NCBI GenBank assembly: GCA_026025075.1
Contig: JAPEUI010000019.1
Coordinates: forward strand, 1 to 64,000
Direction: 5' to 3'
DNA from: Vezdaea acicularis
Lineage: Eukaryota
DNA length: 64,000 nucleotides
A model generated the notes under the pieces. That model saw nothing but the letters and a program-made list of their open reading frames with translations, had not been told where the DNA came from and ran no database searches. The position numbers and the translations under genes are program-made. Below are positions 10,466 through 45,365 of this stretch, piece by piece (the stretch's first letter is position 1; each line of letters begins with the position of its first letter).

Positions 10466-11836
10466 TCAGTCCTCCTTGACCAAACTCCCGTCCAGCATCC
10501 TCCCCTCCCTCGCGCCCCCCTCCGCCCTCCACGTCTCCACGAGCCCCGCCTTCGGATCCTCATCATCCAGCCCCGCACTCTTCCTAACCTTGAGCACCTC
10601 CATCCTAACCCTCTTCGTAACCTCCATCCTGAGGTCCACAGCCTCCTTGCCAAACTTGAGTCTCTCGGACAAGACGCCCATCTCCCGCGGCTCTTCCCCC
10701 TCTCGCTCTGTCAAGGCCTCCCAGCGGCGCCTCAGATCGCCAAAGACGCGCTCGACGTCGACCTCCTGCCCGAAGACGATGCGCACGGCCTCGCCGGTGC
10801 TGGGGAGCCAGCGCGGGCTAGGCCGCTCCTCGTGCATGATGTGCTGCGGGCCATCGATCCAGATGGGGACGAGGCGGGGAAGGGGGTCGGCCTCGAGGAG
10901 GAGGCGGGCGACGCCCCATTTGAAGTAGCGCATGGTGCGGTCCGGGTGCTGGTGGACCTTTCCCTCGGGGAAGATGTGGATCCAGCTGTGGCGGCGGTTA
11001 GGGTAGGCGGAGGGGGCGGGGAAGGTGTCGATGGTGTTGGTGCTGTAGGTCAGGTGGGGTGAGCTGAAGGGGTCGGAGATGTCGGGGGATTTGATAGAGC
11101 GGTTGGGCTTGCTGGCTGAGTGGAGGGATTCGGTAGTGGTGCTGCTTGGGGTGGAGGGGGGCGTGGGGGGCGTGTAAGGGCCGTGGGAGAGGAGGCGGAT
11201 CGTTTGTGTCATGGTGGGTTGGAAGAGACCGCCGTAGGGTGAGTAGGCGATGCGGTGGGTGGGGAGGACTTGGCCGAAAGTGAAGAATGTGGATAGGAAT
11301 CTGGTAGAGTCAGTTTCAGCTTTCTAGTGTGGGTAATCGGGCGTTAGAGGGCTTGGGTGAACCACGTACTTGTTCGTAAAGCAGATATCATAGCTACCAA
11401 GGGTCCAGCGCATGTTATCCGCATTGAAGCAGTAGCGCAATGGCAGGGCGCCCCAAACGAGCGGATCATCAACTCTTTAGATGGACCGTTAGCACACTGG
11501 CTTCCCACGCGAAAGGCTGCTCCACATCAGGTAAGAGCCTGGGTACATACGTACACAGAGATATGGTTTGAGACTAACAAAACACGGGGGTCAGTCGAAG
11601 CCTTAACGATCAGACCATGAATCCAAAGTCTTACCAGTGATCAACCCCCTCTCCCTACCCTCGATATCCTTGCGCTCGTCCAGCACCTGCATAAAGCCAT
11701 CAAGGCCATCTACTTGCGTCTTGCTGAACGCCTTCAACCAGATGCGCGACAGGCCCCCAAACACGCCCATGACGATGTTCGAGCCATAGCGCCAGGGCCG
11801 GCTGGGCGTCGAAGGATGGTCTTCGGTGTCTGACAT
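10466..11836 (-). CDS. TAZ1: Tafazzin (cardiolipin transacylase), 4 exons
   Basis: Spliced RGLITVSNHISVVDDPLVWG (NHxxxxD acyltransferase motif), RWTLGSYDICF and HIFPEGKVHQ...YFKWGVARL. Confidence 0.93.
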
Positions 11837-12079: not shown

Positions 12080-13274
12080 ATGGCCCACAGTAAGCCCCCC
12101 AAAGCCCCATCCTCAAGGCCATCACTAAAAGCCCTCCTAACTCTCCCTCCCAGGCAAACGCAACACCTCCCTCGCCTTCTTCACTTCACACGAGCGCTCC
12201 CTGCTCAAATCCTCATGGGGCTCACGCTCCACACGACTCTCGCGCGACTCCTTCCTGCCCTTCGCATCATGCATGCTATGCCTGCTCCCCTCGCGCTCCC
12301 CCGTCGCCTGCGCCTCCAACGGCGATATCTTCTGCCGCGAATGCGCGCTCGCGAATATTCTCGCACAGCGAAAAGAGATTAAGCGGCTCGAGAAAGAAGA
12401 GGAGAGGCGGCGAGTGGACGAAGAAGAGGAGGCGCGCAAGGAAGAGGGAGAGGCGCAGGAGCGCGCGGTTTGGGAGTTCGAGCGCGTGCAGGTCGGGCTT
12501 GAAGGGAAGCTTGGTTCGGGGGGGGAGCGGAGTGGTGGGGGAGGAGCGGGGGAAAGGGACGAGGATGGGCGAGAAGAGGAAGAGAAGGGCCAGCCGCGCG
12601 GCAAAAAACGGAAATTCGAACTGGACGAACATGAACTCCTCCATATCGCTTCCTCGGAGCGTGCCCGCACCAAACAAACCCTCCAGACCGAAAAATCCCT
12701 AGCCGCAACCCCCCGCCTCCCCTCCTTCTGGGTGCCCTCCATCACCCCTTCCTCCAACACCACCAACGCCCTCCACCACATCGTCAAAGCCCCAAAACTG
12801 CACCCCGTCTGTCCCGCCTCCGCGCTCGAGAGACCACATCACTACAGTCTTAAAACGCTCGTCGACATTTCTTTTGCGGAGGAGAAAGACGAGAAGAGTG
12901 GGCTGTTGATCAGGGTTTGTCCCAGCTGCAATAAGCCGCTGAGTAATAGTCTCAAGGCGATTCTTACTGTTCCGTGTGGACATGTGCTGTGTAAGCCGTG
13001 TGCGACCAAGTTCATGCAGCCGGTGCCAAGGGATCCGCATTCCCCGGCCGCCGCGGGAGAGGGGGCCGAGGGGGGCGCAGAGGGGGGGAGCGTGGTTTGT
13101 TACGTCTGTTCCACGTCCCTGACCGAGCGGCCGCGGAAGCGGGGCCGCGAGAGTGAAGAGAAAGAGAAAGACAGGCTGAAGCCCGGCCTAGTCGAGCTCA
13201 AGAGCGAGGGCACGGGCTTTGCGGGGGCCGGCAAGAATACGGTGCAGAGGCAGGGCGTGGCGTTTCAGTGCTGA
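12080..13274 (+). CDS. NOSIP: NOSIP-family RING/U-box protein
   Basis: ATG 12080, then an intron, then MAHSKRNTS...SFLPFASCMLCL. Also GDIFCRECALANIL, LPSFWVPS, the C-terminal RING (CPSC...PCGHVLCKPC...CYVC) and EGTGFAG. Confidence 0.85.
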
Positions 13275-13825: not shown

Positions 13826-14500
13826 TTAGCCACCGAAACCGTACAGAGTGCGGCCTTGGCGCTTGAGGGCGTAGACGACGTCGAGAGAGGTGACGGTCTT
13901 GCGTTTGGCGTGTTCGGTGTAGGTGACGGCGTCGCGGATGACGCCTTCGAGGAAGGTCTTGAGGACGCCGCGGGTTTCTTCGTAGATCACTGGAAGGGGG
14001 GGCATGTTAGTCGTGATACATGGTAAAGGGGGAGACGAGAAGGAGTGAGGATAGGGTTGACGAAACCCAAGGTGCAAGGACAGGAAGAGCTTACTGGCTG
14101 AGATACGCTTGACGCCGCCACGGCGAGCGAGACGACGGATGGCGGGCTTGGTGATGCCCTGGATGTTGTCACGGAGAATCTTGCGGTGACGCTTGGCGCC
14201 CCCCTTTCCGAGACCCTTGCCACCTTTGCCGCCTGCAGATGGGATGTTAGCATGGTGATATTAATTGAAAGTAATCACCATGAGATATACGTCGAGATAG
14301 AGATGAAGTTGTAAAGTAGGTTAGGGGTTAGGGGATGTGTATGTGGAGGGGGATTAGGGTTTGGTGGGGGATCGGAACAGCCGAGGCGAGGAAGAGACAA
14401 TGTCAACACCATCACCAAACCCGACCGAGCCGCCACGACCACGAGAACAACAGAATTTTGCACGCGACGACAAGCACGAAAAGAACTTACGTCCAGTCAT
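13826..14500 (-). CDS. HHF: Histone H4, unpaired copy (no adjacent H3); exons 14500-14491, 14232-14095, 13989-13826
   Basis: Splicing gives [57 protein letters not shown]...TLYGFGG*. Confidence 0.98.
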
Positions 14501-15168
14501 TTTGAATAGTCGAGAGTGATGAAGCGGGTTTGAATATTAGATCTCGTCGTCGCACGGGATGATCAGATGACTTTTTCGGACGAAAACCGATGAAATGGAG
14601 CAGTCGGTCGGTGATGAGATAAACTGGCTTTGTGGACGAGGTGAGAGGAGGGAGAAAGAGGAGGTAGCGAGCGAGGATGATTAAATAGGCCGCACGCTCA
14701 AACCGCGCGACGAGAGAGTGATCTGATCTGACGCGCGTGTGGTGAATGAGGGCCGCTAGCCCCGTTTCGGCGGCTTAGCGGTGCGGTGGATGGCGAGTGC
14801 AGGAACAAGAAGCACAAAGTTCCGTCCGATGCTGCTCGTGGGGAAAAAAGGGAGTCTGTTATGGCGCGTTCAAAAGCTGCTGCTCCAAACGCCGTTTTCT
14901 GCCCTCTCTCGGCTGCCTGCGCCGCCGCGACGTCGCTTAGTTGCTAGCGCCGCTCTAGCGTGCCCAGACCGTGATAAGCGAGCGTGGCCGCCTCAGCCCG
15001 CAAAAGCCTCAATTCGAGCGCCGTCGACTATATGAACGCGAGGGCGCGCCCACCGTCCGCGTCGACCGCCCTCTCTCCCAAACTCCCCAACACGCACCAA
15101 AAACCCCGAATTCGAATCCCAGAGACAAAAATCTCTCTTCTTTCTTGTCATATTAAATAAATACAAGC

Positions 15169-15174
15169 AAAAAA
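15169..15174 (-). terminator. Pol III oligo-T terminator (T6)
   Basis: TTTTTT 6 nt after the 3' arm of the terminal stem. Confidence 0.7.
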
Positions 15175-15335
15175 GAGTTGAGTTCCGGGAGGGGACTGCT
15201 CACCCCGACCTGGTCGGGAGAGTTGAGACCCATATCTATCTCAACAACTGGTCTGGTCAGGCGTGTGACTGGAAAGCCACCGAAGCGGCATTCCAGGCAC
15301 TCGCCCTACCATTAGACCAATCTGCCCCCGGAACT
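15169..15335 (-). ncRNA. Unassigned ~165-nt structured RNA gene with RNA polymerase III hallmarks
   Basis: TATATATA at 15367-15360 (about -30). A box TGGTCTAATGG at +17 to +27. Terminal stem AGTTCCGGG/CCCGGAACT. Long hairpin capped by C-UUCG-G plus two short hairpins. T6 at 15174-15169. G-U pairs fix the strand as minus. Confidence 0.8.
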
Positions 15336-15359
15336 ACGATGGTCTTTGCCTTACAACAA

Positions 15360-15403
15360 TATATATAGCACCCTTCCCAAGGCTACCAAAAGTTGGTTCG
15401 AAC
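15360..15403 (-). promoter_or_regulatory. TATA box (15367-15360) and perfect B box GTTCGAACC (15403-15395) upstream of the ncRNA
   Basis: Direct matches to TATA and to the TFIIIC B-box consensus GTTCRANNC. Confidence 0.6.
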
Positions 15404-16192
15404 TTCGTCTTGCCTAAAGCTGCGCGGAGCACACAGGCTTGCCTTTGATTCTTGATACCTTAGGGAAGAAGATATATACAACTTGCACAGACGTCAGGCC
15501 ACATTTGCGGCTGCTTGCGTCACGCTGACCGGTGTGAGCAGCGCTCCAAAGTGCAGGGCTCCAACTGAGAGGTCTGCGGAACATGTCACCCTTTCCCTCG
15601 ACACAGTCCGATCATCTGCAAGGCTTAGAAGTGCATCTATCTGCAAATATAACTTCCTTTCAATCAAACCAAATTTCCTTGAATTCCCATCCAATCATGT
15701 CGAGCGCGCCCCTTCTGCAGGTTGGTCCAATCATGGCACGGTCCGCCCAAGCTTCTTGGAGGTTAAGGTTATCTTATCTGCTGGATCTATTTACCCCTTT
15801 GGGAGTGCAGCCACCCAGTTACATACTCTGCAATCCGCATCGTAACGTAGCTGTAGCATCCTCCATCAAATGCGTATTATTTCCTTGCTAATAACTTCAC
15901 GATTCCTGTGAGCGCCAGCATTGAGGAATCAGCCCACCGCGAGACTTGACGATCCGGCGTTCGTGTCTCGCTTAATTTATTTTCCTCAACGACGAGAAGC
16001 TCACAGTCCATCTCAACGGAGCGGTAGCTTGCAGCTATACAGAGCATCCTACTGTACAATTTAGGAATCGTGTCCGCATTGCACAGTGACTGATAGCCGT
16101 TCCAATTGCAGAAAGTCTGAGTCGGTTCTCAGACCGCTTCAAGCACATTTGGGCATTTCCGCGCCCCAGCATTTTCACAGCCGGAGCTCAAC

Positions 16193-17354
16193 ATGGCGGT
16201 CACCTCGAGCGCCAATTCTAACGGCTGGTTGGCTCGCAAACATATCGATGGAGTCTATATCCCAGCAGGCCTTTTGATCGTAGGCATGGCGATTGTAAAG
16301 TTTGAATGGATTTTCTTCTCTGTCGCAGCGGCAATAATATTAGGAGGCTGGAAGTTATTTAATAGCCGTAAGTCTCAGATGGATCCTCTCCAAGTCTCCT
16401 CTTTATCTTGGACCTTTGTCTTCCCTTGTCTCAGCGGGCTATGTGCTAACCATGAAATATGGTCCATAGGGGTGAGAAAGGTCCTCAAGCCGAAGGAGTA
16501 CCAGTCTTTTGAATTAAAGGAGAAGACCGTCATAACGCACAATGTTGCGATGTGAGTTGCTCTTTCTATGGAAAGCCTTCTCATACTGAACATTTCTCAG
16601 CTACAGGTTTGGCCTCCCGCGGCCAACAGATATACTAGGCCTGCCCATCGGCCAGCACATCTCGATCCAGGCAGAATGCCCCACCGAAAAGGGTTTAACG
16701 AAGATTACCCGCTCCTACACGCCTGTATCCTCAGATCATGAGCCTGGCCACTTCGACCTCCTCATCAAAAGCTACCCAATGGGCAACATATCAAAGTATA
16801 TGGCTACCCTCAAGATTGGCGAGACAATCAATGTCCAAGGTCCCAAGGGGCAGATGGTGTACACCCCCAACCTGGTCAAGCGTTTCGGCATGATTGCTGG
16901 TGGTACTGGGATCACGCCGATGCTCCAGATCATCCGCGCTGTCATTCGCGGACGGCCGAAGAATGGCGGGAATGACACTACCCGCATCGACCTCATATTC
17001 GCGAACGTCGAGTGGAAGGACATCCTGCTGAAAGAGGACTTGGACGCCCTTGCGGAGGAAGACGACGGCTTCAATGTATACTACGTGCTCAACAGCCCGC
17101 CAGAAGGCTGGAAGGGAGGCGTCGGCTTCGTCTCGCCTGACATGATTAAGGCTAGTATCTTTCTTTCCAGTTCAAAAATAGCACTGCTGACAGACATCTT
17201 ATAGGCCCACCTTCCCCCACCAGGCCCCGACATGAAAATCCTCATCTGCGGTCCCCTGCCCATGGTCAAGGCGATGCAGGCAGCCACCGAAGGTCTGGGT
17301 TACGAGAAAGCCAGCCGCGTCTCCAAGCTACCCGATCAGGTCTTCTGCTTCTAA
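16193..17354 (+). CDS. CBR1: NADH-cytochrome b5 reductase, 4 exons (last intron GC-AG)
   Basis: N-terminal TM anchor, [37 protein letters not shown] and a DQVFCF* end. Confidence 0.95.
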
Positions 17355-22556: not shown

Positions 22557-24390
22557 ATGAAGTACGTTTTAGTTTCCGGCGGGGTGATCAGCGGGATCGG
22601 CAAGGGCGTCATCGCCTCTTCCACCGGATTACTCTTGAAAACCACGGGGCTGCGGGTGACCTCGATCAAAGTGGATCCCTACCTCAACATCGATGCCGGG
22701 ACCATGTCGCCGACCGAGCACGGCGAAGTGTTTGTCCTGGACGACGGCGGCGAGGTCGACCTCGACCTGGGCAATTATGAGAGATATTTGAACATCACTC
22801 TTAAGCGCGAGAACAACATCACGACGGGCAAGATATATCAGAAGGTTCTCGAGGGCGAGCGGAGGGGGGATTACTTGGGTCGCACGGTTCAGGTCATTCC
22901 GCATATCACGGATGCCATTCAAGACTGGATACAGCGCGTCGCGAGGGTGCCGGTCGACGATACGAATGAGACGCCGGATGTCTGTATCATTGAGCTGGGC
23001 GGGACCGTGGGGGATATGGAGAACTCCCATTTCGTCGAGGCGCTGAGGCAGCTGAGGCGGAGGGCAGGCAAAGATAACTTCATGCAAGTACATGTCTCAC
23101 TGGTCCCCATCGTCAACGGCGAGCAGAAGACAAAGCCCACGCAGCAGGCGGTTCGAGATGTACGGAGTGCTGGGTTGAGTCCCGATCTTGTAAGTTCTCT
23201 TCTCGACACTCCGCTAAGCATTTCGGACTGATGAACATTAGATTGCATGCCGCTGCGATTTCCCGCTTGAGAAGGAAGCCATAGAAAAGATTGCGCTCTT
23301 CTGCCAGGTTGAGCCAAACCAGGTCTTGGCGGTTCACAACGTCTCTCCTACATACCGGGTGCCCCTCCTCCTCGAGTCCCAAAACCTCATCCCTCTCCTG
23401 AGCGAAGGCCTCAACCTCCCCGCCCTCACCATCCCACCTAAGCTCCTCACGCAGGGAAAGCAGATCCTGCACGCATGGAAGAACCTGATCAACGCCCAAG
23501 ACCGCCTCTACGAAGAAGTGACCATCGCCCTAGTCGGAAAGTACAAGAACCACAAAGAATCCTACCTCTCCGTCATCAAATCCCTCGAGCACGCCAGCAT
23601 GCACTGCAACCGCAAACTAAACCTCATCTACATCGACGGGGCCCACCTCGAGCCCCTCAGCCCCGAGACCAAATCGCACACGCCCGCCGACCACCACAAA
23701 GCCTGGCACGCGCTCTGCACCGCCTCTGGCGTCCTCATCCCCGGAGGCTTTGGCGCCCGCGGCACCGAGGGCATGATCGCTGCCGCCAAGTGGGCCCGCG
23801 AGAATCATAAACCCTTCCTGGGCATCTGTCTGGGGCTGCAAATCGCAGTGATCGAGTACGCGCGCAACGTGTGCGGAATCGCGTCGGCGAGCTCCATCGA
23901 GCTGTTCGAGCGCTGCCCGGACCCCGTCGTCGTCTTCATGCCCGAGATCAGCAAGGAGCACATGGGCGGCACCATGCGCCTCGGCATCCGCGCCACGCAT
24001 TTCCAGCCCGGCACCTCCTGGTCGAAGCTGCGCCGACTCTACGGCGACGTCGAGGTCATCCATGAGCGCCATCGCCATCGCTACGAGGTCAATCCCTCCT
24101 ATATCGAGCGCTTGACCAAGGCCGGCTGCCATTTCATCGGGAAGGACGATTCCGGCGAGCGCATGGAAGTGCTCGAGCTGAAGGACCATCCCTATTTCGT
24201 GGCCGTCCAGTTCCATCCGGAGTACCTCAGTCGCGTGCTCGAGCCCAGCGTGCCCTATCTGGGCTTCATCGCTACGGCGGCGGGCTTACTGGAGGAGGTC
24301 TCGCTGAAGAAGGGGGGTATGGTCAATGGGCACGCGGCGACGAATGGCGTTAATGGCATTGCGGATGGGATGGATGGGATTCGCATTTGA
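22557..24390 (+). CDS. URA7: CTP synthase (intron 23190-23241)
   Basis: [58 protein letters not shown] and QFHPEY. Confidence 0.98.
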
Positions 24391-31192: not shown

Positions 31193-32974
31193 CTACCAAG
31201 CCCGGCCCGTCACCGCTTCGGTCGCCAGCACCTCCACGCGCCGTGCATACACCTTCATCATGTGCATGACGGGGTCGCCAAAAATGACGGAGCGCAGCTG
31301 CTCATCCGAGGTAGTGCAGGCCCTGACCTCTCTGCCATCCTCCCTAGCTCTGAGCAGGACAAGGTGTCCGGCATTGCTGAGCGAGTTCGGAGGGACCGGC
31401 CAGTCGGGAGCGTTGTTGCCCGGGCGAAGGGCTAGAGCTTTCGAGGGCGAAGCTTTGGGTGGGGAGGAGCGCTTGCGATCGCGGGTTCGTGGAGGTGGAG
31501 AGGGAGTGGGGACGCCATGCGGGGTTGGGGAGGCGTATAGATCGAGGAGGCTCCTGACGTAGGTCTTGTCGGCGCGGGGGACGGGGTCTCCTTCGTTGAT
31601 CAGGCCCAGGAAAAGGAATTTTCGGTAGCGCCGCTTGTCTGGTTTTTGCAGCGGTAGTAGACTGACGGGCGGCGCGCCGAAGGTGATGCAGTGCACGCGC
31701 TTGAAGGCGCCGGTGAGGGCGGTGAGCTCGCTGTCGAGGTTCGAGAGCATGTGTGCGTAGAGGAGAGCTGCGACGGCGCCGCCGGCGCTGTGGCCGGTGA
31801 TGAGGAGGCTGCAGCCTCGCCTGTCGGGGTTCTCTTCCAGGAGCTGGCGAAGGCGCGATGCGACGGGCTTGAGCATCTTGCGGGCGACGCTAAGGAAACC
31901 GGAGTGGCAGAAGTTGCCAGGGTCGTCGAGGAAATTGGTTGGGGATGCGGGGGTGCTATTGAGGTTTACGGCCCAGTCCATGAACGTCTGGGAGCCGCGG
32001 ATAGCGAACACGATGGTGTTTTGGGAGTCGAGGGGAAGGGACTTGATGACCATCGCTTTTGTGCCTTGGCGCCAGTCAGCGGAGATGTGGAAGGAGCGCT
32101 CGGCTGACTTCGGTTTGGTGTAGACTCGGGTGGAATATTGAGCTGCGAGACAGAGAAGCGGATATGATGGCATGTAGAGTCTCAAAGGGGGCAAGTTTGG
32201 GGGGAGCCGTGAGTTGGAGTAGAGATTCGCCTTGGCGAAGTAGTTCGTGCTAGTTATGGCGTCGGAGATGGCACAATTCGCTTTGCCTGATGAAGTACTC
32301 TTCTGGGGCTTGCCTGTCGGCGCAGCTAGGGGTCTGCTCCCGCCTCGAAGCGCGGGTTGTGGCGGTGGAGGTTGGTATATGACCACTGTTTCGATCAGTC
32401 CCTTTCTATATCGCAGTAATTGTGGGGCCCACTTACTTAGGTCCTTCCGGTCCCCGCTGAACACCTCCGCATCAATAGCCGTTATGATGTCATTAAGCTT
32501 GCCATGGAGAATATCACATAGCGAAGCCCCCTGATTGAGATAACCGGTCGTCTTGTGTTGCCACTCCCGTATCCCATCGTCGAAAGCGTGTACCGGCGCA
32601 ACCATTGCAGTCGACAAGTTCGTTAACGATGTCCATCCGTTCTGCAGCCCCAATGGACAAGATTTCGAGGGCGGTGCTAGAAGGGCGAGATTAGGTTGTG
32701 ATGCGGCTGGGTGGAATTGGTACTGTGTGTGTTGAGGGGCAATGAGCGCCGTGTTAGAAATGGCGGGGTATCCATAGTTGTAAGGTGACTGCTCAAGATG
32801 CGGCGGTGGGAGTTGGGCTGGGATGGATTGAGGTACATTGTAGGATGAATAGTTTTGTTGATTAGATACCACCGAGTATGGTGGCGGGTTCGGAGAAGGC
32901 GTATATGGTATTGGAGGGTTGAGGGTGTACTGCTTCTTCTTCTGCCTCCCGGTGAAAAGGCTCATGAAACTCAT
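31193..32974 (-). CDS. Class 3 lipase family protein (in-frame intron 32386-32436)
   Basis: IVFAIRGS, HSGFL, LLITGHSAGGAVA (GxSxG), ITFGAPP and NEGDPV. Confidence 0.9.
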   Translation of the reverse strand: MSFMSLFTGRQKKKQYTLNPPIPYTPSPNPPPYSVVSNQQNYSSYNVPQSIPAQLPPPHLEQSPYNYGYPAISNTALIAPQHTQYQFHPAASQPNLALLAPPSKSCPLGLQNGWTSLTNLSTAMVAPVHAFDDGIREWQHKTTGYLNQGASLCDILHGKLNDIITAIDAEVFSGDRKDLSKWAPQLLRYRKGLIETVVIYQPPPPQPALRGGSRPLAAPTGKPQKSTSSGKANCAISDAITSTNYFAKANLYSNSRLPPNLPPLRLYMPSYPLLCLAAQYSTRVYTKPKSAERSFHISADWRQGTKAMVIKSLPLDSQNTIVFAIRGSQTFMDWAVNLNSTPASPTNFLDDPGNFCHSGFLSVARKMLKPVASRLRQLLEENPDRRGCSLLITGHSAGGAVAALLYAHMLSNLDSELTALTGAFKRVHCITFGAPPVSLLPLQKPDKRRYRKFLFLGLINEGDPVPRADKTYVRSLLDLYASPTPHGVPTPSPPPRTRDRKRSSPPKASPSKALALRPGNNAPDWPVPPNSLSNAGHLVLLRAREDGREVRACTTSDEQLRSVIFGDPVMHMMKVYARRVEVLATEAVTGRAW

Positions 32975-44178: not shown

Positions 44179-45365
44179 GATTCGACTCAAGCTCTTGAAG
44201 AAATCTTCGAGGATTATCTTGCTTCTAACGACGAACCTTCACAAGCATTTTAAGCCGCCATCCGGGTGCTGCGTAGAAAAGGCACTGATCAAGATATGCT
44301 GGGAGAATATGAAAAGGCTCATGCATCGTCGTCAGCGAAGATGCCGTAGTGGATATTGATTGAATAAGCTGCCGCGCAGAAATTGACTCCATCAGCGTTG
44401 CATTGGGATAGTCTAGGGCTAACTTCGGGCTAGGAAGTTTTGCTCGAACCAAAATCAGAATGAAAGAAAGATTTCTCCAAAAACAATGCGTGAAAGACTT
44501 GGTCCCAATTGAGATAACAAAGGCGCAGTAGCATCAGAGTGAAATCCGAGTAGGATTTAAGAACAGATTCAAGTAGAAGATATCAATAGAGTGAAATTTA
44601 TCTCGGGTCAATGATGCCACTCCATATTGCGGATGATGATAAAGCAACAGCTGGGTGCCTATCTGTCGTGCAGCCATAGGACCCCAGTCACACCCGATTT
44701 CGGACCAGACGCAGCTGACGAGCATTTTAGAGCTTCTAAAAAACCCTTACAGACCGGTCTATGGCGGCTTTCGGAGAGAAATGGAGCACGGCCTACTCTT
44801 CCTAATCTTCCATTAGACCAAGGACGCTGCCAGTCATAAGGCACTAATGAAGTATTTGCTGTATGTATCCTTTAGGCTATCAGACCAGTGGCTTATTTCA
44901 AGAAACTAAAGTTCCGAGTTACCCTACAGCCAGTGCCGTGAATTTTGGCCGACATATTAGGACTGTACATAAACTCTTGGGTTGCATTCTCTGTGAGATG
45001 ACAGGGGTTTCGGTGCAAGCGGTAGATCTTCGGCCAGCTGCCTTCGCGTGATTCGCCGCGGAAGCAACCTTGCTACTCTTATTCTGCACCGGCAAACTAT
45101 AAAGCAACACTCTGAAGAGACCTCATTCCACCAGCCTGTCTAGACAACGCCATGTAGTAACGAAAATGATTGACTCCCCATGAGAAAAGACTTGGCTCTC
45201 CGACTGCATCTGGATAGTGGGCTTCGTTGCCAAACGTGTACTTAACCTCACCCTTCTCCCTTGAAAGAATAGAGGGCCTTCTCCGGTAACGCATCTCCTC
45301 CGTCACTTTTCAGCTTCAGCGCAAACGAAATCTCACACTCATTTCCACTTCTGCTTCCGACCATA

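Follow-up and report, generated by a model that had tools for sequence, protein, structure and literature searches.

To our knowledge, filamentous ascomycetes have yielded very few RNA polymerase III (Pol III) products beyond tRNA, 5S, U6, SRP RNA and RNase P/MRP RNA, the main exception being the milRNA precursors of Neurospora. In fission yeast, Pol III genes have TATA elements at about -30, as do the 5S genes of Neurospora, and yeast SNR6 (U6) combines a TATA element at around -30 with an internal A box, a T run and a B box placed downstream of the terminator. Rodent BC1 and B2 and the fungal SINEs are tRNA-derived Pol III RNAs or SINE heads that carry an A box and terminate at a T run.

In its accessible text, the study of Yang et al. 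(2013; PMC3547838) describes the N. crassa precursor pri-milR-1 as an intergenic, Pol III-made transcript of ~170 nt that depends on TATA-like elements and has a T stretch at its end, and milR-1 is given no predicted A or B box. This text bears out the statement, made in the first-pass annotation of the locus studied here, that N. crassa milRNA precursors are Pol III transcripts with TATA-like elements and T-stretch ends. According to the same text, milR-4 derives from a Pol III transcript that includes a tRNA and is processed by RNase Z, and murine gammaherpesvirus 68 is cited there as a case of tRNA-linked Pol III hairpins. Among structured RNAs of fungi, the accessible part of Gao, Jones and Rivas (2021; PMC8216456) reports "Intergenic structure 2", a stand-alone RNA of Pezizomycotina with a mean length of 144 nt, for which no function is known. 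It is represented there by 223 sequences from 207 genomes, with 24 covarying pairs and no H box, and none of the 17 candidates of that study had a significant Rfam match. The accessible text of Li and Breaker (2017; PMC5640933) contains no motif matching our candidate RNA, and that of Jochl et al. (2008; PMC2377427) likewise contains nothing matching it.

The window analysed here is a stretch of 64,000 nucleotides (64 kb) from Vezdaea acicularis, a moss-dwelling microlichen fungus. NCBI taxonomy places Vezdaea in the Vezdaeales, leotiomyceta incertae sedis, far from Neurospora and outside the Sordariomycetes. A 333-residue ORF at 12273-13274 matches, at 100% identity, a protein that NCBI attributes to a Vezdaea acicularis MAG; its best matches beyond Vezdaea are at most 61% identical and come from Geoglossum-, Trichoglossum-, Pycnora-, Candelina- and Peltula-type fungi. 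Because of this isolated taxonomic position, few genomes lie at a distance useful for comparison. On the minus strand of the window, a candidate Pol III small RNA gene lies at 15335-15169, between a histone H4-type ORF and a reductase-type ORF. These neighbours, known at the level of fold and domain, are consistent with the labels "H4" and "CBR1" that they had received earlier. The features of the locus are collected in Table 1.

Judged from its sequence, the locus is probably a real, lineage-restricted gene for a tRNA-derived Pol III RNA, and we put the probability that a Pol III RNA is made there at roughly 0.65. Two other readings compete with this one. The gene may be real and its RNA chiefly a precursor, whose imperfect helix P2 of ~35 bp would be diced into milRNA-like small RNAs that are not homologous to milR-1 or milR-4. 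Or there may be no gene: the locus would then be a tRNA gene in decay, or the remnant of a mobile element of tRNA origin, that acquired nested inverted repeats and from which nothing stable is made, the TATA element being a leftover of the old tRNA promoter and the T run fortuitous.

Table 1. Features of the candidate locus and its neighbours. Positions are those of the 64-kb window; nt numbers count from A15335 along the predicted RNA.
Feature	Position	Strand	Remark
Histone-fold ORF, H4-like C-terminus	13826-14077	minus	Neighbour of the candidate RNA gene
NAD-binding oxidoreductase ORF	16779-17204	plus	Neighbour of the candidate RNA gene
Upstream TATA element, TATATATAT	15367-15359	minus	-32 to -24 relative to A15335; read in the sequence
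Predicted primary transcript, 167 nt	15335-15169	minus	A15335 to the end of T6; folded core nt 1-155
tRNA-like 5' half, nt 10-46	15290-15326	minus	Mapped by eye from the D-arm register
18-mer with canonical D arm and A box, nt 17-34	15302-15319	minus	Identical to tRNA positions 8-25
tRNA-type A box, TGGTCTAATGG	15319-15309	minus	+17 to +27
P1, 5' strand, nt 1-11 (leader and first two tRNA-like bases)	15325-15335	minus	Pairs with 15181-15191
P2, 77-nt rod, nt 14-90	15246-15322	minus	tRNA-like 5' half paired with its own antisense
P3, 8-bp hairpin with 8-nt loop, nt 91-114	15222-15245	minus	RNAfold
P4, 9-bp hairpin with one bulge and 3-nt loop, nt 115-136	15200-15221	minus	RNAfold
Joint between P4 and P1, 8 nt, single-stranded	15192-15199	minus	RNAfold
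P1, 3' strand, nt 145-155	15181-15191	minus	11 pairs including one G.U
T6 run, expected Pol III terminator	15174-15169	minus	Starts 6 nt past the last P1 pair

Anatomy of the candidate transcription unit

The TATA element, the A box at +17 and the T6 run named in the first-pass annotation all lie on the minus strand where it had placed them. The unit accordingly has a TATA element near -30, an A box starting within +8 to +20 and a T run of at least 5, and inspection of the sequence revealed no internal T run of 4 or more within the candidate RNA. On the plus strand, no T run of at least 4 lies beyond the element. In the 64 kb, TATATATA occurs three times per strand and T6 11-12 times per strand. 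The A-box consensus with up to two mismatches was found 285 times in the window (286 expected) and the B-box consensus 56 times (61.6 expected), both at chance frequency. Because of this, a consensus A-box match proves nothing alone, and the weight rests on the full D-arm match and on its position. No B box was found inside 15169-15335 at up to two mismatches, a point in favour of there being no gene; the nearest B-box-like word (15108-15119, two mismatches) lies downstream of the terminator, and such words occur at chance frequency.

The positions of these elements agree with one another. With the TATA element at -32 and the A box at +17, the first base of P1 falls on the predicted start, and T6 follows 6 nt after P1. 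Read together, the TATA element, the A box and the helix ends are three independent signals that agree on one start and one end, and the coincidence of the helix ends with the predicted start and stop speaks against a mere relic. On both strands of the 64-kb window, units were formed from TATAWAW words, each with the first T5+ run lying 60-400 nt downstream of the expected start. Seven such units were found. Three of them are at the candidate locus, with folding energies between -0.41 and -0.51 kcal/mol per nt, and both units of the proximal TATA element reach -0.51; the four units elsewhere in the window lie between -0.20 and -0.27 kcal/mol per nt. An upstream leader of the RPR1/snR52 type, running from a distal TATA element (15472-15480), was also considered and rejected, as this segment folds no better than shuffles (z 0.41).

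The first-pass annotation had seen no tRNA signature in the element, and this stands for a complete tRNA: ARAGORN detected no tRNA gene in the 64 kb, the Rfam tRNA model (RF00005) had no match at E up to 10 on 186 nt, and a complete cloverleaf is absent, with no T arm, 3' acceptor strand or anticodon stem. It does not stand for the 5' part, where the 18-mer at nt 17-34 is an exact D arm and occurs without mismatch, from tRNA position 8 onward, in two phage tRNA genes, tRNA-Asp (L003) and tRNA-Asn (L005). It has U8, A14, G18 G19, A21 and a 4-bp stem, and its stem-loop reads GUCU / AAUGGUA / GGGC. Because the A box is at +17, tRNA position 1 falls at +10 (nt 10), that is, behind a leader of 9 nt, a length normal for tRNA genes. 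The tRNA-like 5' half consists of a 7-nt acceptor-strand equivalent (nt 10-16), U8 G9, the D arm and G26, and nt 35-46 resemble, by eye, one 5-nt strand of an anticodon stem followed by a 7-nt anticodon-type loop (Y32 U33 ... R37).

The sequence that follows is of another kind. Nt 56-90 are antisense to nt 14-51, and the pairing of the two makes up P2. By eye, no matching tRNA 3' half lies downstream, which disposes of a tRNA with a long intron, and no complement to the acceptor-strand equivalent was seen either. D-arm-shaped patterns number seven in the window over both strands, against 5.0 +/- 2.3 in shuffles. Since the motif is thus not rare in itself, the weight lies on the 18-nt identity and on its position, 16 nt downstream of the start that the TATA element predicts. 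A 5' part that is plainly tRNA-derived, and yet belongs to an incomplete tRNA, is also what a decayed tRNA gene or a tRNA-derived relic would leave.

Predicted fold and its strand bias

RNAfold returned, unprompted, the same four helices that the first-pass annotation had drawn by eye. The candidate RNA has a minimum free energy (MFE) of -85.1 kcal/mol, and none of 200 dinucleotide shuffles (mean -57.3 +/- 4.1) folds as well, which corresponds to a z score of -6.77. The fold has 59 pairs with a mean pair probability of 0.91 and leaves a 3' tail of 12 nt. Folded alone, P2 reaches -45.8 kcal/mol (z -6.91). Its interior contains four 1x1 mismatches (A/G, A/A, C/U and U/U) and one AAU bulge, and its cap is a cUUCGg tetraloop (15281-15284), which exists on the minus strand only. 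Regular 1x1 mismatches of this kind are typical of miRNA-type hairpins and favour a role of P2 as a dicing substrate; against such a role, the mature strand proposed in the first-pass annotation (15202-15181) lies outside this long hairpin.

All 160-nt windows of the 64 kb were then compared on both strands in steps of 20 (n = 6386) with correction for G+C content. The minus strand of the locus ranked first of the 6386, at 4.2 residual standard deviations, and the plus strand at the same place ranked third. The first rank argues against a locus without a gene. The plus strand, at -74.8 kcal/mol, folds in its turn as inverted repeats at the DNA level do, which is in keeping with a relic.

The two strands differ in the composition of their pairs as well as in MFE. 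The minus-strand fold contains seven G.U pairs, spread over all four helices, and the plus-strand fold one; none of the four symmetric mismatches of P2 is an A.C. Because neutral decay of a DNA palindrome should produce G.U and A.C equally, a one-sided 7:0 would be expected with a chance of (1/2)^7 = 0.008. Both this 7:0 excess of G.U over A.C and the transversion-type mismatches are unexpected under neutral decay and thus under the reading without a gene. We infer that RIP is not the origin of the G.U bias, as the repeat arms are much too short. The strand that carries cUUCGg agrees with the orientation of the TATA element and the T run. Given the G.U bias, the absence of A.C and the cUUCGg cap, the modelled fold signal thus appears to be specific to the minus strand.

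The locus in relatives and in sequence databases

The locus is retained in close relatives. It was found in six DNA sequencing runs from three studies, four of these runs being moss metagenomes; no RNA run was listed as containing it. Contigs from four runs were aligned to 14300-16200 at 80% identity. One contig of a relative is identical over 15147-15297, and a second shows 5 differences and no gaps over 15158-15329 (172 nt). In more distant relatives, the flanking intergenic DNA is ~91% identical, and so is the 5' part of the element: for two contigs, X2 record 10 and X5 record 16, the stretch 15230-15335/15341 (106-112 nt) aligned with 10 differences and one gap. X5 record 16 has, in place of the 98 nt at 15132-15229 (the 3' third of the RNA and the terminator region), 99 letters that cannot be aligned at 80%. 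Its alignment resumes at 15131 and, down to 14350, shows 37 differences and 31 gaps over 782 nt. By eye, X2 record 10 is ~70% identical over its first 30 unaligned letters. Of the 199 single-letter differences, the 40 that were listed all lie outside the RNA.

The 3' third thus diverges faster than the flanks, which is odd for a uniformly constrained RNA. Quick divergence outside P2 would fit a precursor in which only the hairpin matters, and a 3' third that changes faster than its surroundings would equally fit a decaying relic. In X2 record 10, the 3' strand of P3 differs by two substitutions and one insertion. P4 has six substitutions in this contig and, by eye, can still form nine contiguous pairs (six Watson-Crick and three G.U) with a 4-nt loop. 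When six random substitutions were introduced into nt 120-134 in 5000 simulated variants, 7.9% kept at least 8 pairs and 1.3% kept at least 9. The pairing of P4 in this relative, read by eye from one contig at depth 2.5, gives modest support for constraint on P4 and weighs against there being no gene.

Over the element, neither depth nor contig number is higher than over the flanks in four runs, which argues against a multi-copy element. As no second copy was found in the 64 kb, and as contigs do not pile up in these runs, the candidate gene looks single-copy. A 12-mer at 44810-44821, considered as the trace of a paralogue, is a chance match. A SINE or MITE was rejected because of the single copy in 64 kb, the lack of excess depth or extra partial contigs in the four runs, and the lack of a target-site duplication around P1, as judged by eye. 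The same two observations, no target-site duplication beside P1 and no sign of multiple copies, also tell against the relic of a mobile element.

Rfam 15 (4227 families) gave no match in the window at gathering thresholds. None of the curated small RNAs (5S, U6, SRP, RNase P/MRP, Y, vault, snRNAs and snoRNAs) came near its gathering threshold. In lax searches with 501 nt and 186 nt, P2 matched generic miRNA-hairpin models together with naRNA4, RsmY and a twister model; HOTTIP_1 was matched on the plus strand. All of these matches have an E value of 0.14 or worse and reach a third or less of the gathering scores, the best being mir-726 (19.1 bits against a gathering score of 76) and naRNA4 (17 against 59.5). 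That the best of these weak matches are miRNA hairpin models is in line with a precursor. Y RNA, the SRP Alu domain and helix 8, vault RNA, U6 and RNase P/MRP RNA were dropped as identities because they gave no Rfam match even at E 10. Taken together, the layout, the fold and the Rfam check lend in silico support to the original proposal of a Pol III-type structured RNA unit of ~160 nt that fits no curated family.

A scan for the 18-mer yielded no homologues; it returned three loci in viral contigs and one in genome contigs, namely the two phage tRNA genes and two unrelated loci. A metagenome scan for the A-box word, a gap and the partner word returned two loci of the same sequence, which are coding-like and not homologues. 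A 13-mer of the candidate RNA had no match in full-text literature, and no RNA-gene work was apparent by title or abstract among the matches listed for Vezdaea.

Proposed origin, rival readings and known systems

In the reading that we prefer, the single-copy, Pol III-transcribed candidate gene would have arisen from a tRNA gene. It would have retained the upstream TATA element, the 9-nt leader and the 5' half bearing the A box and the D arm. The 3' half of the tRNA would have been replaced by an antisense strand, giving P2, by the hairpins P3 and P4, and by a trailer that pairs with the leader, giving P1. Transcription would start at ~15335 and stop within the T6 run, yielding an RNA of 155-167 nt that is closed, folds into four helices and ends in a 3' U tail. 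Its two predicted ends would lie in or beside P1, an arrangement shared with other stable Pol III RNAs. The D arm would be locked inside P2, and T arm and 3' acceptor strand would be missing; the folded particle would accumulate and act, though not as a tRNA, with P2 as its working surface for any partner it may have.

That the candidate RNA acts as such a stable folded particle is a tentative proposal, to which we give somewhat less than even odds. The constraint signal of G.U pairs in all four helices, the closed P1, the retained pairing of P4 and the cUUCGg cap point to constraint on the whole fold, and they favour a stable particle over a mere dicing substrate. The RNA as chiefly a precursor of milRNA-like small RNAs is rather unlikely in our estimate; as far as the accessible account in PMC3547838 goes, the locus would match pri-milR-1 in size, TATA element and T run, and it would share tRNA-type sequence with milR-4. 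That there is no gene is unlikely, too, and this possibility keeps its weight because the 3' third outpaces the flanks, because the plus strand also folds well and because transcription is itself a prediction.

Membership of a described fungal RNA family that is absent from Rfam, for example "Intergenic structure 2", is improbable. In the accessible text of PMC8216456, that RNA is intergenic, stand-alone, of similar size and without an H box, and the study from which it comes obtained no significant Rfam match for any of its 17 candidates; against this, it was found starting from Aspergillus fumigatus and in only 207 of 1371 genomes, and the host proteins are only ~60% identical to those of the nearest sequenced relatives. 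A true if distant homologue of N. crassa milR-1, as the first-pass annotation had suggested, is very improbable: it would share only the size and the layout of TATA element and T run known from the accessible account, whereas the milR-1 sequence compared, 40 nt from a pair of 20-nt qPCR primers (PMC3547838, Table 1), has no match in the window at up to three mismatches, which leaves the homology unsupported, milR-1 has no A box, and the taxonomic distance of a host outside the Sordariomycetes makes the homology unlikely.

It is possible, although somewhat doubtful, that the locus represents the first case of a previously undescribed type of Pol III RNA in fungi, in which the 5' half of a tRNA is locked in a rod by a built-in antisense within a closed four-way junction. 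Two roles are conceivable for such an RNA, that of a new stable particle in lichen-type ascomycetes and that of a Pol III-driven trigger of RNAi whose 3' arm is antisense to the parent tRNA or to tRNA-derived elements. If the preferred reading is true, the locus shows the birth of new Pol III RNAs from tRNA genes. As a clean unit present in one copy, in a lineage that is deep and poorly sampled, it would also offer a simple test case for whether Neurospora-type Pol III hairpin RNAs exist well outside the Sordariomycetes. Should the RNA prove not to be expressed, the locus would be only a curiosity of tRNA-gene decay.

Among known systems, tRNA genes share with the candidate the D arm (positions 8-25), the leader length and the upstream TATA element, but the cloverleaf is not formed. 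The layout of SNR6 recurs in the TATA element at around -30, the internal A box, the T run and the B-box-like word past the terminator (15108-15119), although the candidate has neither U6 sequence nor a Rfam U6 match and its downstream B-like word is at chance frequency. Like SINE heads, the candidate has a 5' region related to tRNA that contains an A box, and it would end at a T run, but it is single-copy and syntenic in relatives. Compared with SINEs, BC1 and B2, it is devoid of a B box and of an A-rich or LINE-like tail, and it has instead a closing helix of leader and trailer. "Intergenic structure 2", compared by its description only, is like the candidate a stand-alone intergenic structured RNA of similar size. 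In precursors of the milR-4 type, a single Pol III transcript contains both a hairpin and promoter sequence of tRNA type, as is predicted for the candidate; these precursors carry complete tRNAs, which are cut off by RNase Z, whereas the candidate contains the 5' half of a tRNA only. Because this tRNA 5' half is itself one arm of the hairpin, the candidate RNA would present no tRNA-shaped substrate. Finally, the candidate resembles pri-milR-1 in its predicted size of ~170 nt, its intergenic place, its upstream TATA-like element, its expected T-stretch end and its hairpin content, and differs from it in having a full D arm with an A box, a closed four-helix fold and a cUUCGg cap.

RING-finger ORF and recovery of the spacer

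The sources name the RING-finger ORF NOSIP-like or E3 ligase CSU1. Its product matches a Vezdaea acicularis MAG protein at 100% identity and shares at most 61% identity with that of any other fungus among the matches listed, which illustrates the isolation of the lineage. When DNA sequencing runs with contigs of relatives were compared, only 15358-15508 of the 1.9-kb spacer was recovered from run X6 (152 nt with 4 differences and 1 gap), and the same segment was found in run X1 in two variants with 3 and 22 differences. This recovery pattern may reflect chance in which contigs were assembled at low depth.

Features around the RNA and elsewhere in the window
Feature	Position	Strand
RING-finger ORF	12273-13274	+
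B-box-like word	15104-15124	-
T4	15387-15390	-
Small hairpin	15393-15408	-
Second TATA-like word, TGTATATATC	15472-15480	-
Repeat of TGGTCTAATGG	44810-44821	-
Next-best folding window	10741-10940	+
Next-best folding window	31521-31880	+
Next-best folding window	23581-24040	-

Upstream region of the RNA

The second TATA-like word lies approximately 110 nt upstream of the first TATA, and a T4 is located between the two. The segment between the two TATA-like words folded no better than shuffled sequences (z = 0.41). Approximately 60-75 nt before the start of the RNA, a small hairpin with a 5-bp stem and a 6-nt loop is also present. The unaligned ends at 15372 and 15410 in the X5 relative contain this stem, with loop letters that by eye appear inverted; this looks like an inversion of the hairpin loop between lineages.

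Other places in the window

TGGTCTAATGG was seen again inside another D-arm-shaped pattern, and this repeat was regarded as a chance match because a TATA, a T run and a fold comparable to that of the RNA were absent nearby by eye. In the folding scan, the windows ranked next are all G+C-rich (0.62-0.72) and probably coding.

B-box-like word beyond the T6 run

A palindromic word that resembles a B box (GATTCGAATTC / AATTCGAATCC, two mismatches in each direction) is located approximately 45-65 nt beyond the T6 run, within a 7-bp hairpin followed by T5. Words of this kind occur at chance frequency. The element could serve as a back-up terminator, or it could be a B box placed downstream, as in the yeast U6 gene.
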